Virus record (IMG/VR): IMGVR_UViG_3300028588_000015
Coordinates: 1 to 64,000 of that record
DNA: 64,000 bases
Direction: 5' to 3' (one strand)
Origin: a virus
Lineage: Duplodnaviria > Caudoviricetes
A program made the position numbers and the translations under genes. The notes below the pieces were generated by a model, which made no database searches, was not told where the DNA came from, and saw only the letters and a list, made by a program, of their open reading frames with translations. Below are positions 6,662-10,999 of the stretch, one piece after another; within the stretch, counting starts at the first letter, position 1, and each line of letters starts with the position of its first letter.

Positions 6662-7468
6662 TTAACGATTGCCGCCGATCTGTTGCCGCAGGAAGCGTTC
6701 CCACGACTCGACGTCGTTCATGAGTGCAATCTTGCCCCAACGTTCTTTGAGCATGGTTTTGTAGAGTTCGTTACACTCTTTGAACTCCATCACCATGTCT
6801 TTGATCGCGCCCAACTGTTGACCACCCACCAGTTGGCTGTAGTCCAATTCTAACGCCAGTTCCACATAGATGTGGGCTTTGACGGCGTACAGCACCAGTT
6901 CTGCAAACTTGTGATAACTCTTCAGTTGCAGATGCGACATGTTGTCATCATTAGCGAAGATGCAGCGCAGGTAGCAGTAACCCGGTAACAAGGTCGGGTC
7001 GCGTACCGCCACCACGTTTTCGCCGATGAGTTGTACCTTGGCGGTCGAGATGTTGGGAATCGTCCCGTGCGCATCCATCATGCCTTGTGCGATGTTCAAT
7101 AGCGCCGAACCATTCGACAGCGTTTGCGCCCCCCCATAGCTCAGTGAGTCTGGGCTGGTGAAGGTGATGTTGAGAGCCGACAGAATGCTGCGTCCTTGGG
7201 TGCGGCTTTTGGGAATACGGTAGACGGTGGTGAAGTCGTCCGTCCGGTCTGTTTCCAAACCGCGCAAGTCCACGTAACCTTGCGCGCCACCCATCAAGCC
7301 TACGTCGCGCAGGACGCGCGGACGGATTACTTCATGCATGATGCGTTCATCGATTGAAACCGGTGCTCTCCCCCAAGTACTCGACTGTTGCGGCTTGAAA
7401 ACAATCTCCAGCAAACGACGCGGGATCTCCCGTTTGACTTCATCCAGCGCAGTTGATATCGGGTTCAT
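6662..7468 (-). CDS. Conserved phiKZ-like hypothetical protein, divergent from phuZ
   Basis: 268-aa ORF, GGAGGGG RBS; position next to phuZ as in phiKZ-like phages. Confidence 0.75.
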   Translation of the reverse strand: MNPISTALDEVKREIPRRLLEIVFKPQQSSTWGRAPVSIDERIMHEVIRPRVLRDVGLMGGAQGYVDLRGLETDRTDDFTTVYRIPKSRTQGRSILSALNITFTSPDSLSYGGAQTLSNGSALLNIAQGMMDAHGTIPNISTAKVQLIGENVVAVRDPTLLPGYCYLRCIFANDDNMSHLQLKSYHKFAELVLYAVKAHIYVELALELDYSQLVGGQQLGAIKDMVMEFKECNELYKTMLKERWGKIALMNDVESWERFLRQQIGGNR

Positions 7469-7490
7469 AGACCCCTCCTAAAAATATTTG

Positions 7491-7511
7491 GACACATATT
7501 ACCTAAGTGAA
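7491..7511 (+). promoter_or_regulatory. CACATAT-N7-GTGA promoter-like motif for phuZ
   Basis: GACACATATTACCTAAGTGAA; contains TATTAC, the reported phiKZ early-promoter core. Confidence 0.7.
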
Positions 7512-7604
7512 TCACATACGATTCGCGAAGCTTTAACACTAAATTTTAACTGTGTTGTTTTAGGTTATGTACCAAAAGCAACATCAAAAATGAAAGAGGA
7601 AAAA

Positions 7605-8612
7605 ATGAACGACAAGAACGTTAACACCATCCGCGCGTATAACTTCGGCGGTCTGGGTTTCAACATCGGTGCCCAGCTGGAAACCTTCCGCGACCACGCG
7701 ATCAAGGCCACGGCGCAACTCGACATCGCCTACGCCGACACCAGCGACTCGGACATGCAAGCCGAGATCGACGTTGCCAACTGTTTCTTCTTGCCCGGCG
7801 CCGCCGGCTCCGGCAAGTTCCAAGGTCAACACCTGGACGCGATCGATGCCCATGCCAAGGCCTTCCTGCAAAACTTCAAGCCCTCGGAAACCCTGAACAT
7901 CGTGGTCTCGTCGGCCAGCGGCGGCTCCGGCCCGGCATTCGCGTCGACCATCGTCTCCGAACTGCTCGACGCAGGTAAGAACGTGATCGTCATCGTCGTC
8001 GGTACCACGGCCGACAAGCGCGAAATCACCAACACCCGCAACAACGTGCGCAGCTACATCAACATCGCCGAAGACACCGACAAACCGGTACCGATCGCGT
8101 ACTTCCAGAACAGCACCGCCACGCCGCGCGCTGCGGTCGACAAGGCAATCGTCGCCCTGGTCGGTTCGCTGTGCGTGCTGTTCTCCGGCCAGAACCATGG
8201 CCTGGACAAGCAGGACCTGTACAACTGGCTGCACTTCAACGAGAACAAGACCACGTCCTACGGTGCGCGCATCGCGCAGCTGAGCATGTTCGAAGGCGAC
8301 GACCACATCGGCAACATCGGCAACGTGATCACGGTCGCCACCCTGTCTTCCCAGAAGTCGGGCCACGAAATCGAGCAGACGCCGGAATACCAGGTCGTCG
8401 GCCGCATCCCGGAAGACGCCACCCAGGTCATCATCGAGGCGACCCCGATCCACTTCGTGATCAGCACCGGCCGCTTCGCCGAAGTCCTGAAGTCGCTCGA
8501 CGACAAGCTCGTCGAGATCAACCGTGCACGAGAGGCGGTTGTCGATACGCTGTCCAGCAACATGGGTGACGCGAAAGCGAAAGCCAACAAGCGGGGCATC
8601 GTTGTCGACTGA
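7605..8612 (+). CDS. phuZ: PhuZ phage tubulin
   Basis: Tubulin/FtsZ motifs FGGLGFNIG, GAAGSGK and SASGGSG; short C-terminal tail ending GIVVD; ATG at 7605 with GAGG RBS. Confidence 0.93.
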   Translation: MNDKNVNTIRAYNFGGLGFNIGAQLETFRDHAIKATAQLDIAYADTSDSDMQAEIDVANCFFLPGAAGSGKFQGQHLDAIDAHAKAFLQNFKPSETLNIVVSSASGGSGPAFASTIVSELLDAGKNVIVIVVGTTADKREITNTRNNVRSYINIAEDTDKPVPIAYFQNSTATPRAAVDKAIVALVGSLCVLFSGQNHGLDKQDLYNWLHFNENKTTSYGARIAQLSMFEGDDHIGNIGNVITVATLSSQKSGHEIEQTPEYQVVGRIPEDATQVIIEATPIHFVISTGRFAEVLKSLDDKLVEINRAREAVVDTLSSNMGDAKAKANKRGIVVD

Positions 8613-9343
8613 TGCGTCTCGCGTGGTGTTAGTCACAGGCGGCTCCTTGTGGGTGCGGCTGGGGTTGGCCGCAGCCGCACTACTGACGGGTGCCGGTATG
8701 GTGCTGATGTGTCGGGACGAACTTCCGGCGCAAGAAGCCTCGACCGGTGAAGGTGTTGTCGAGACATTCGACGCATTTGCCTCTACCCGCCTGACTCGAT
8801 CCTTTGCTGAACGTATGCTCGACATCCGTCCGGAATACGCAGGCGATTACGACTGGACTTGGGAAACCGACCCGGCCGTATTGTCACGCTCGATCGACGA
8901 CACCATGCCATCCTCGCCCGGCGTTTGGTCAACGCCGCGGCCTCAATCAATGACCATTGATCCGAACGCCGGCCGCCACAAGGAATCGGACCTTGTTAGG
9001 CAACGGAGTTACGTGATCTTCGGTCCAGTTGAGTCGCGGGGTGGATGGCCCGCAGACCGTAGGACGAAGGGATCGAACCGTTCCTTCTGAACTGGAATTA
9101 GACCAGTCGCGTTAACAACCTGCACTCACCGAGTGGCAGGGGATCGCGTCCACTTGCACCATCGCCGTATCCGAACCACCCACTTACCTGTTACGACGGG
9201 TGAGGGCTGAAATTAGGACCGAGCTTTGGGGTGTAACGCAGATGATCCAGTGAGGGGTGCTATCCGTGCCGCAGAGTGGTGTCATGCCACAATGCAATTA
9301 GCGCCGTAAAGTCACCCCTCACACCAATCCAAGTAGTATCAAA
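8613..9343 (+). ncRNA. Candidate large structured non-coding RNA
   Basis: Many perfect or GU-containing helices, e.g. 8653-61/8672-80, 8644-52/8976-84, 8695-703/8901-09, 9024-30/9090-96, 9183-91/9196-204 with a UACG loop, 9250-59/9313-22; no well-supported CDS. Confidence 0.7.
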
Positions 9344-9452
9344 GTCGAGACGGGCGGATGTTGGTTGGACGCACAGGCGAAAGACGAGAAATCGTGCGAG
9401 TACCTGCGATCTTTAATAGAGACCCGAAGGTTCGATTCCTTCTCTCGACACC
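9344..9452 (+). ncRNA. tRNA-Leu-like element with the anticodon loop replaced by a 25-nt insert
   Basis: Acceptor GTCGAGA/TCTCGAC, discriminator A9450 then CC; Leu-type D arm GCGG..TTGG..CGC; anticodon stem CAGG/CCTG; long variable arm TCTTT-AAT-AGAGA; T arm GAAGG-TTCGATT-CCTTC. Confidence 0.8.
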
Positions 9453-9470
9453 GTTATGAAAGGAGTACAG

Positions 9471-9740
9471 ATGAAATACATCATCACACCGAGTTTCTTA
9501 ACTGTCGTTAATGATGACGGTGAAGAATTGAATGTGCACATATATCCCAGCGAATATGCTGTACTGAGTCACGAAGGCAGAACACTACTAATGATTCAAG
9601 CCGCAAAGGACCCCAGTTCGTTTACCACGTTACCGCACACGAAGCAGGACGTTAAAGAAGCTGTCTTCAATCTCGTATCAACTGCAAGGTACGTTACCAG
9701 AAGAAACGGTATCGACATGCCGTTGTGGTTAAAACCGTAA
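9471..9740 (+). CDS. Hypothetical protein
   Basis: ATG at 9471 with AAGGAG RBS, 20 nt after the tRNA-like element. Confidence 0.75.
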   Translation: MKYIITPSFLTVVNDDGEELNVHIYPSEYAVLSHEGRTLLMIQAAKDPSSFTTLPHTKQDVKEAVFNLVSTARYVTRRNGIDMPLWLKP

Positions 9741-9742
9741 GA

Positions 9743-9793
9743 GGTTTCTTGTCGCCCTTCTTGTCAGGGGTAGCAAGAAACCTTTTTATGCCG
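9743..9793 (+). terminator. Terminator with TTATGCCG flank
   Basis: GGTTTCTTG..CCCT/AGGG..CAAGAAACC, T tract, TTATGCCG at 9786-93. Confidence 0.7.
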
Positions 9794-9854
9794 TGTAATA
9801 AAAAACACCATATGCTAATTTTATGTGGGGTACCCATCTGAGAAAGGAGAGGAC

Positions 9855-10226
9855 ATGCATGTCCGTGCTTGGCTGATCCAAAGCATTGCGGGGTATCTGG
9901 CGGACCTTGAACCGTATTTAACCCAAGCCCTAGCTAAACACCATATTGAACAGAAAGAGGATTTTGTTCTGTGGTTAGTGCGTCAAGAGCTACTGTCGAT
10001 CTATTGCTTGTTCGAACATCGTGCTTTTTTGGCAAGCACGCGGTATTTCAAGGTCTATTCTGATTTACAGGAAAATGTGCCGTTCAACATACAGAAATGC
10101 TTTACGCACTATTTTCGCGCACCCCGTCTTTTCGACGGCGGTCCAGTTGAAGTGAATTTACGGTCCCATCACGTTGTCTGTGTTGGGTATCTGACAAACC
10201 TTGAGAAGTACGATCCCAAAAAATGA
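9855..10226 (+). CDS. Hypothetical protein
   Basis: ORF 9825..10226; ATG at 9855 after GGAGAGG; overlaps the next gene. Confidence 0.7.
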   Translation: MHVRAWLIQSIAGYLADLEPYLTQALAKHHIEQKEDFVLWLVRQELLSIYCLFEHRAFLASTRYFKVYSDLQENVPFNIQKCFTHYFRAPRLFDGGPVEVNLRSHHVVCVGYLTNLEKYDPKK

Positions 10227-10999
10227 TTGACGAAAAATACCCGATCAAACAAGTAGCAATCGTGGAAATCATGGGGGTGGCTGTAGCGCTCCATGAATAC
10301 TACTCGAAGTACCTGATTGCGCCGCCCGGCGGCGTGTACCTGCGTAATAGCTTCAAACCGGTGTTGGTGCCCAATCAGAAATACTACCAGCGCGTTATCA
10401 CGGACACCTCGAGCGGGAACCAGTTGGTAACGATGGTGCCGATCAATTTCGATGACCCATTAACCGAGGTACAAGGCGCTGTTTTTGATGAGAATGGCGT
10501 ACTCCTTGTTTCAGCGCACGCCATCCACATGCTGCGGCCGGAGCCACTGATGCCGGTGGTAGCGACCGAACTGATCCTTGACCTTCTGAACCTTGAGCTG
10601 AATAAGCTTCAGGCATGGGTGCCACACGGTGTCGATCGTAAATTGGAATCTAAAAATAGCGCATATGAAGTTATTATGCGCTACCTTACACCGGAAGCCA
10701 AGGATGCGATTGCCAACGACAACATCCCAAAGACGGGTCCAATGCGTCGCGATATTGCTACCAATGTTGAACTGCTCGAAGAACTGGTGCGCAATCAACC
10801 CGTGCTGGTCGATCTGTTTGAAGACATTCTCCGCCACATGGCGGTGCTGCGTAAACGCATTGTGTCATTCGTGGGTGAAGATGTCTGGTGCGTGCATTTC
10901 ATGGAACATTTGGCACACGGCGCCATTTCGCTGTCCAAGAGCGTCGACTATCGCATCATTGACTGGCACGAAAAGAACGGCGTGCCGATCGATTACTAA
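10223..10999 (+). CDS. Hypothetical protein (phiKZ-like cluster between phuZ and the DNA polymerase)
   Basis: 258-aa ORF in a tightly coupled operon. Confidence 0.75.
   Translation: MIDEKYPIKQVAIVEIMGVAVALHEYYSKYLIAPPGGVYLRNSFKPVLVPNQKYYQRVITDTSSGNQLVTMVPINFDDPLTEVQGAVFDENGVLLVSAHAIHMLRPEPLMPVVATELILDLLNLELNKLQAWVPHGVDRKLESKNSAYEVIMRYLTPEAKDAIANDNIPKTGPMRRDIATNVELLEELVRNQPVLVDLFEDILRHMAVLRKRIVSFVGEDVWCVHFMEHLAHGAISLSKSVDYRIIDWHEKNGVPIDY

Follow-up and report, generated by a model that had tools for sequence, protein, structure and literature searches.

The window analysed here covers the opening 64 kb of an IMG/VR virus record 225.5 kb long, and leaf-litter metagenomes are the source of both the DNA and the RNA runs that contain the region under study. 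An ORF at 7488-8612 (7605-8612 in an alternative call) encodes the phage tubulin PhuZ, as identified by a match to Pfam TubZ_C_2. The nearest named PhuZ relatives, at approximately 33% identity, belong to the Ralstonia jumbo phages RP12 and RSL2, and relatives on long uncultured contigs share 56-69% identity with it. Because of the PhuZ match and these nearest named relatives, we assign the carrier to the PhuZ-encoding jumbo phages, as an uncultured relative of Ralstonia phages RP12 and RSL2. It is presumably nucleus-forming, a reading taken from PhuZ. The PhuZ relatives have a gene order in common, which runs from a DUF7484 gene (minus strand) through phuZ and a small ORF to approximately 320 nt of non-coding DNA ending in CTCACACCAAYC, and then to the next gene. 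Downstream of phuZ, the window contains the following features:

8623-9090: small conserved protein gene with a hydrophobic N terminus and the motif YDWExDPAVLSRP..DTMP
9013..9332, + strand: conserved structured non-coding RNA, found in all eight related lineages, with the element appended at its 3' end
9331..9343, + strand: leader AAGTAGTATCAAA, which separates the upstream RNA, ending in ..CTCACACCAATCC, from G1 of the element
9344-9452: tRNA-shaped element
9459..9740, + strand: RBS AAAGGAG (9459-65) and an 89-aa ORF (ATG 9472 to stop 9740), starting 7 nt past the element
9742..9793, + strand: 10-bp hairpin (9742-51/9774-83), T run and TATGCCG (9787-93)

The interval 8623-9090 is protein-coding, as indicated by tblastn E-values down to 1e-17 and by an excess of changes at third-codon positions. 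A preliminary description of this DNA had placed a large RNA of 730 nt upstream of the element. A conserved structured RNA does adjoin the element, but the proposed length did not hold, as 8623-9090 is this protein gene and the RNA occupies approximately 9013-9332. On the other side of the element, the 89-aa ORF is homologous to the gene directly after the upstream RNA in L009, L011, L012 and L014. This ORF is missing in L018, a second lineage that carries the element, and a terminator-like hairpin is found there instead, right after the element. In the window, the feature at 9742-9793 is the first strong hairpin with a T run, and its equivalent in L018 lies directly 3' of the element with no gene between them; the hairpin likely marks the end of the transcription unit. 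Because L018 has a terminator-like hairpin and no gene at this point, it is the element, or else the end of the upstream RNA, that is under selection, and not the start of a downstream mRNA. A scan of 7300-10300 gave no sigma-70-like promoter, where the consensus used may not be that of this phage. The same interval gave no terminator-like site on the + strand and a single one on the - strand (9864-9851), and the phages' own terminators may differ.

At 9344-9452 lies a complete class II tRNA scaffold in which a structured insert of 25 nt takes the place of the anticodon loop. All features given in the preliminary description are present at the positions it assigned, and the element reads as follows:

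9344..9350, + strand: 5' strand of the acceptor stem, GTCGAGA, in 7 Watson-Crick pairs with 9443-9449 and invariant in all three known copies
9351..9373, + strand: linker CGG (9351-9353), D arm and A26, following the ARAGORN drawing
9374..9377, + strand: 5' strand CAGG of the basal stem of the extended 'anticodon' arm, paired with 9403-9406
9378..9402, + strand: 25-nt insert replacing the anticodon loop
9403..9406, + strand: 3' strand CCTG of the basal stem
9407..9425, + strand: class II variable region, with CGA, the stem-loop TCTTT-AAT-AGAGA (9410-9422) and CCC
9426..9442, + strand: T arm GAAGG-TTCGATT-CCTTC with a canonical T loop
9443..9452, + strand: the acceptor stem's 3' strand, TCTCGAC, discriminator A9450, C9451 and C9452, followed by G9453

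The D arm consists of a stem GCG/CGC (9354-56/9370-72) plus a G.A pair, with a loop that contains GG and A21. The linker that precedes it carries a C at tRNA position 8, where tRNAs have U8, and at 3 nt is longer by one extra base. An ordinary anticodon loop and U33 are absent, as had been proposed from the first reading of the sequence, and the insert with ACGA-GAAA-TCGT is in their place. Within the insert, an internal loop is formed by CGAAA (9378-82) opposite GAGUA (9398-9402), followed by the pair G9383-C9397 with G9396 bulged, and then by a hairpin ACGA/UCGU (9384-87/9392-95) with a GAAA cap (9388-91). The whole arm can be read as a continuous rod, in which a purine-rich 5x5 internal loop follows the first 4 bp, and a G-C pair with a bulged G then leads into a second stretch of 4 bp and the GAAA cap. 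By inspection, AGUA facing GAA might form a loop-E/bulged-G motif, for which L018 has C in place of G. A kink-turn reading of the same internal loop was rejected on inspection, as neither strand has GA after a 3-nt bulge.

Standard detectors pass over this element. At default stringency ARAGORN called no tRNA anywhere in the 225.5-kb genome, the window included, either in its default mode or with introns allowed, the check that the preliminary description had recommended, and its default tmRNA search was likewise empty for window and genome. With lowered thresholds the program produced a 'tRNA-Ser 9028-9452 with a 342-nt intron', which we rejected as one among hundreds of noise calls. Rfam gave nothing at gathering score, and by E-value only miRNA noise and a sub-threshold tRNA match. 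The Rfam tRNA model (RF00005) reaches 17 bits, against a cut-off of 29 bits, and does so with GACGAGA (9383-89) paired where the true 5' strand belongs. When 9379-9401 is swapped for any 7-nt loop, ARAGORN at default settings calls a class II tRNA at exactly 9344-9452, and the same swap in the copies of L008 and L018 results in tRNA calls too. The loop alone thus keeps the element from being called a tRNA. Compared with a decoding tRNA, the element has the cloverleaf body (7-bp acceptor, D arm with G18G19, 5-bp T stem and a TTCRANY loop) and lacks the 7-nt loop with U33 and a score at the detector threshold. It is the only site in the genome where a G53/C61 T arm is paired with a perfect 7-bp acceptor stem, and 60 first-order shuffles of the genome yielded 0 such sites. 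Taken by itself, the element does not reach significance in minimum-free-energy folding (z = -1.1), as is usual for tRNAs, and this value was left out of the argument.

Homologues of the element are present at 5736-5844 of L008 and at 8319-8425 of L018, an IMG/VR record of 218.7 kb that was reached by a 21-nt pattern. Both lie at the same syntenic place, right after the CTCACACCAAYC motif. Scored with R1, a covariance model built from the element family, the three members reach 125-130 bits and class II tRNAs come next at approximately 37 bits; each of the three carriers has one R1 copy per genome. The preliminary description had named homologues with an ordinary 7-nt loop as the finding that would mark the element as a decayed tRNA. 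Instead, both homologues keep the insert and show compensatory changes. In a structure-aware alignment of the three copies (A6), 98.8% of cells are paired. Four pairs have changed on both sides and still pair, compared with 0-1 in slid controls, a difference that is statistically modest with three sequences. Two of the changed pairs lie in the insert hairpin (ACGA/UCGU vs AUGG/CCAU); the other two are pair four in the basal stem (G-C, U.G and C-G across the copies) and pair two in the T stem (A-U, G.U and G-C).

All three copies agree fully in six parts: acceptor stem and linker, D stem and T loop, GAAA cap and, in the internal loop, the 3' strand GCGAGUA. Opposite it, the 5' strand of the loop is CGAAA, GAAA or CAAA. 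The segment 9351-9373 is the same in the window and L008, and the D loop is 1 nt shorter in L018. The variable region is the most divergent part, yet its stem-loop is kept. Most differences between the copies fall in kept pairs or in the variable region, and none are found in the acceptor stem, D stem or T loop. The discriminator and tail are A-CCG in the window, G-CCA in L008 and A-UCA in L018, so that the tail after position 73 (CCG, CCA, UCA) resembles CCA. Overall identity among the three copies is 83-90% for the element, compared with 69-76% for phuZ DNA and 58-63% for the upstream non-coding DNA. From these comparisons we are highly confident that the element is a conserved structured element, a non-decoding tRNA-shaped RNA family under selection with three known members.

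Further searches identified no additional member. A blastn comparison of the region with 50,697 phage records gave no match; RSL2 and RP12 have only 125-240 nt after phuZ, with no R1 match, and the more distant clade of L034 gave none. Pattern scans of IMG/VR for exact copies of the insert, or of the T arm together with the acceptor, returned 0 matches, as did scans of metagenome contigs. A looser insert pattern in IMG/VR hit 10 loci, all of them chance matches by R1, and a pattern scan of genome contigs hit two sites in bacterial tRNA clusters that are not family members by R1.

The element is missing from five of the eight related lineages (L007/L033, L009/L010, L011, L012/L013 and L014), and in these the CTCACACCAA motif adjoins the RBS of the next gene. 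The closest comparison is that of L007 with L008, which encode an identical PhuZ protein and are separated at this locus by a clean 126-nt indel made up of a 15-nt leader, the element and a CCAG tail. L033 likewise shares the PhuZ protein of L008 and has no element. The leader is thus part of the module that is present or absent, as it falls within the indel. L008 and L018 have similar leaders before the element, and the leader motif has no repeat elsewhere in the genome, so it is not a repeated promoter-like motif. The carriers do not form a clade in a tree of PhuZ plus DUF7484, and the module has either undergone repeated loss or been exchanged by recombination.

The RNA on which the element borders is itself conserved in structure, with 27 of 70 predicted pairs keeping their pairing through changes on both sides (alignment A7). 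It is present as a single copy with no paralogue in the genome, and has no Rfam match. It ends 11 nt before G1 of the element, and in the carriers the element begins 13-18 nt past the terminal helix of the RNA. As five of the eight lineages have the RNA alone, it does not need the element and matures without it. Contigs from three leaf-litter metatranscriptome runs cover this RNA, with starts at 9001-9004 and ends at 9283, 9305 and 9176. The contigs with ends at 9283 and 9305 stop 38-60 nt before 9344, and a DNA run goes on through the element. The contigs of the upstream RNA are the deepest RNA pieces, and contig depth cannot be used to rank parts of the region. Assembled RNA contigs did not cover any of 9306-10100, which is uninformative on the element, as small structured RNAs are routinely lost; similarly, a look-up with the element alone listed no RNA run, which says nothing about expression. 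The ends of the RNA contigs are compatible with a cleavage at 9343/9344, which is a weak hint.

The scaffold can be compared with genuine tRNAs at several points. In a blastn search with the element alone, the sole matches were to phage tRNA-Ser and tRNA-Tyr genes, which its T arm and acceptor stem resemble. A genuine tRNA-Leu(CAG), found at 6126-6210 of L005, an Obscuribacterales genome, has exactly the same acceptor stem and A73. Outside the family, R1 gives this tRNA-Leu 37.6 bits, an Erwinia phage tRNA-Ser 37.0 bits and a T4 tRNA-Ser 35.6 bits. The element had been introduced as tRNA-Leu-like; its class II scaffold is borne out, whereas a preference for Leu over Ser is not, given R1 scores of 37.6 vs 37.0 bits. 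A plausible origin is a class II tRNA of Leu or Ser type, with Leu-like ancestry also plausible. Both genomes examined (G000 and G001; CheckV-estimated 85% and 82% complete) contain zero real tRNA genes, and because of this the element is not the debris of a tRNA cluster. An integrase/attP origin was also rejected, as the cloverleaf has its 5' half too and a scan of the neighbouring ORFs gave no integrase-family match.

These comparisons allow us to propose a function, to which we give about an even chance, in which RNase P and 3' trimming use the element as a processing handle, and a tRNA mimic that cannot decode is released as well. In such a pathway phuZ, the small ORF, the upstream RNA and the element would be co-transcribed, and host RNase P would cut at 9343/9344, which would both set the 3' end of the upstream RNA and free the element. 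Host 3' trimming and CCA repair would then produce a tRNA-shaped RNA of approximately 107-110 nt. The remodelled arm would provide a binding surface for a protein or RNA partner, and the released RNA would act as a tRNA mimic in its own right. RNase P measures the stack of acceptor and T stem starting at the elbow, and the anticodon arm is dispensable for it (PMC4919913). The invariant or near-invariant parts of the element (12-bp stack, elbow and 3' tail) are just those read by bacterial RNase P, by 3' trimming enzymes and by the CCA-adding enzyme (PMC4919913). Against a reading by RNase P count the C in place of U8, the 3-nt linker and the A at position -1, all of which are atypical for good pre-tRNAs. 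Taken by itself, processing by RNase P and release of the element is about as probable as its opposite. Because the upstream RNA lacks the element in most lineages, this processing model would not be the whole story, and because the strictly conserved arm is useless for end-processing, it would leave part of the function unexplained.

GAAA tetraloops are common docking elements, and the element could instead remain uncleaved as a cis-acting 3' domain of the upstream RNA, either docking through its GAAA loop or serving as a cap against 3' exonucleases. Its constant placement 13-18 nt after the terminal helix of a conserved RNA would fit such a domain, as would its position in L018, where it is the last structure ahead of the terminator-like hairpin. 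We nevertheless consider this unlikely. The upstream RNA has no canonical 11-nt GAAA receptor, the carriers do not share a special 3'-domain variant of it, and it is conserved in five lineages that lack the element; a weak further point is that contigs of the upstream RNA do not reach into the element. Somewhat less probable to us is a chargeable or CCA-tailed non-decoding mimic, which LeuRS or SerRS might aminoacylate and which would, as a decoy or sponge, engage a host factor or a defence that recognises the body or 3' end of tRNAs. The anticodon is not read by LeuRS or SerRS, and in E. coli a tRNA-Leu without its anticodon arm is charged if A73 and the contacts between D and T loops are kept (PMC9976931). 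The element has G18G19 and the T loop, two of its copies carry A73, its acceptor stem is the same as in a real tRNA-Leu(CAG), and its conserved arm calls for some explanation. However, the E. coli LeuRS identity set comprises A73, G18G19 with its T-loop contacts, A15-U48, A20a and U8:A14, and G73 is an antideterminant (PMC9976931). By these rules, which may not be those of the actual host, the element does not have the identity set of a tRNA-Leu, as the discriminator of L008 is G and U8, A15-U48 and A20a are replaced by C8, U15/C48 and U20a. The suggestion of LeuRS-type charging on A73, made when the element was first described, is therefore weakened with discriminators A, G and A and these positions missing, and charging by LeuRS is doubtful. 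SerRS is disfavoured by U2-A71 in place of the G2-C71 of bacterial tRNA-Ser. A decoy would have to act as a single-copy RNA against the whole tRNA pool, and neither G000 nor G001 encodes a CCA-adding enzyme, a Ro/TROVE protein or RtcB. A decoy for anticodon nucleases, which had also been suggested, is unlikely because such a bait needs an anticodon loop, and the element has none.

Two further explanations treat the insert as an accident of a tRNA gene. A decaying pseudogene with an insertion in its anticodon loop would fail tRNA detectors, as the element does, and a dispensable remnant would be missing in most relatives. Yet the same insert is found in three lineages whose PhuZ proteins share only 56-69% identity, the element is more conserved than phuZ, and its changes mostly preserve structure, with acceptor stem, D stem and T loop intact in all copies. 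Judged from these comparisons, decay appears largely refuted and may be treated as excluded for practical purposes. A functional tRNA gene with a short intron is the least probable reading of all, to which we give almost no weight. The anticodon loop, where the insert sits, is the usual site of tRNA introns; however, ARAGORN with introns allowed finds nothing, and in none of the three copies does simple excision of the insert restore a loop of 7 nt with U33. A group I intron would be far longer than this insert of 25 nt, and bacteria and phages are not known to have machinery for short tRNA introns.

The proposed processing handle that releases a tRNA mimic has precedents among known RNAs. In vertebrates, mascRNA at the 3' end of MALAT1 and the tRNA-like element of MEN-beta are released by an RNase P cut that sets the 3' end of the long RNA and frees a CCA-tailed small RNA. 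Like mascRNA, the phage element is tRNA-shaped, has no usable anticodon and directly follows a structured non-coding RNA; the same processing logic is proposed for it. The two are not homologous. The phage element is of class II with a long variable arm, has a lengthened and strictly conserved arm in place of the anticodon arm, belongs to a phage with a bacterial host and is optional among close relatives. On this analogy, MALAT1-mascRNA would be the nearest functional analogue. RNase P also matures the phage RNAs M3 and C4 antisense RNA (PMC11143913). These regulatory RNAs, from phi80 (M3) and P1/P7 (C4), are matured by the host enzyme through a tRNA-like fold (PMC11143913), but mimic only the acceptor/T part, whereas the element is a full cloverleaf with an elbow.

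The nearest phage comparison is T4 RNAC (species 1 RNA), which like RNAD is a phage-encoded small RNA. In RNAC a canonical T arm adjoins a terminal stem, and an anticodon arm is lacking. The roles of RNAC and RNAD are still without assignment (PMC3014915, PMC9697503). Neither is matched by R1, their architecture between terminal stem and T arm is different, and they lie in a cluster of real tRNA genes, whereas the phage of the element has no tRNA genes. Class II tRNAs (Leu and Ser, cellular and phage) share with the element the acceptor stem, D arm, long variable arm and T arm, and differ from it in having the 7-nt loop with U33 and in lacking the C at position 8 and the extra linker base.

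Other families were considered and rejected. YrlA and bacterial Y RNAs are also non-decoding tRNA mimics of bacteria and phages; however, the ends of YrlA form a Ro-binding stem while those of the element form an acceptor stem, and there was no Rfam match and no TROVE match in G000 or G001. A tmRNA was rejected on the empty ARAGORN tmRNA search, the lack of an Rfam match and the pair C3-G70, which is present in place of G3-U70, as the preliminary description had noted in reporting no G3-U70 pair. A plant-virus 3' tRNA-like structure, with its pseudoknotted and chargeable acceptor arm at the end of an RNA genome, does not apply either, as the element forms an ordinary acceptor helix from its own ends and is carried by a DNA phage. 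In the literature on tRNA-like RNAs in jumbo phages and on non-coding RNA of Chimalliviridae we found nothing resembling the element. As a more speculative extension, to which we assign a low probability, nucleus-forming jumbo phages might use a tRNA-shaped tag in the manner of vertebrate mascRNA, with host RNase P releasing the conserved non-coding RNA together with a CCA-tailed and possibly aminoacylated mimic whose arm, by its loop-E-like motif and GAAA cap, captures a specific host or phage factor. Such a mimic would form a new class of phage RNA effector, directed for instance against enzymes or defences that recognise the tRNA body or 3' end.

Non-decoding tRNA mimicry is known from only a few cases, namely mascRNA, Y RNAs, tmRNA and T4 RNAC, and its roles in phages have been obscure for decades. 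The element described here provides a clean, selected example in phages without a real tRNA gene. In it a conserved new surface has been built in place of the anticodon arm, and the parts concerned with tRNA-end processing are invariant or nearly so. Near-isogenic phages that differ in the module occur naturally, as L008 carries it and L007 does not. Should the element serve only as a processing tag, it would represent the use of tRNA punctuation to mature a phage non-coding RNA. If its partner is a host factor or a component of a defence, it would constitute a new type of phage RNA effector.

Upstream of the tRNA-shaped element, positions 9013-9332 hold a conserved structured non-coding RNA, single-copy in this genome; in each of the eight related lineages it lies 3' of a small ORF that follows phuZ. 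Compensatory changes among these lineages were observed in 27 of the 70 predicted pairs, and contigs from three leaf-litter metatranscriptome runs cover the RNA; an Rfam search returned no match to it. The small ORF itself (8623-9090), adjoining phuZ on its 3' side, is a conserved gene whose small protein product carries the motif YDWExDPAVLSRPxxDTMP and is hydrophobic at its N terminus. The preliminary description had placed a 730-nt RNA here. Given that 8623-9090 is a conserved protein gene, that unit resolves into a coding sequence and about 320 nt of RNA. A strong hairpin at 8652-8680 falls within the part of the gene that encodes the hydrophobic segment.

The likely end of the transcription unit is marked in the window and in the related phage sequence L018 as follows.

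Window 9742-9793: 10-bp hairpin and T run, then TATGCCG.
L018 8440-8490: hairpin and T run, then TATGTTCG.

Separately, in L008, a close relative of the window's jumbo phage, an IS605 OrfB/TnpB-type gene (8310-9017; Pfam OrfB_IS605, Cas12f1-like_TNB) lies downstream of the element, a few genes away.

Within the insert that replaces the anticodon loop, GACGAGA (9383-9389) nearly copies the acceptor 5' strand, GTCGAGA. Six of its seven positions are able to pair with 9443-9449, and this was the pairing taken by the Rfam tRNA model. This near copy may be a trace of the origin of the insert, or may provide an alternative fold.

We also considered one RNA of phage T4.

L035 2909-3047, minus strand: T4 RNAC (species 1 RNA).

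Its predicted fold (z = -4.6) places a canonical T arm, CCGGG-UUCGAAU-CCCGG, adjoining the terminal stem, with two long hairpins at the would-be positions of the D and anticodon arms.

Two bacterial tRNA clusters, neither belonging to the element family, were also noted. An Obscuribacterales genome carries an array (L005 5822-6967) with at least seven tRNA-Leu(CAG) genes; another copy (6773-6875), which retains the TTCAGAG loop, bears an insertion (about 18 nt) 3' of that loop and received no tRNA call from ARAGORN. In an odd tRNA cluster on a Roseivirga contig, the T arm and acceptor 3' strand of the element recur at L004 6291-6407, with no matching acceptor 5' strand and no tRNA call.

Finally, we compared L008 with L007, a relative lacking the element (alignment A2, columns 553-700). 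Their PhuZ proteins are identical, and their upstream RNAs share about 97% identity over most of their length but only about 60% in the last domain. This drop in identity indicates a recombination patch, with the element inside it.
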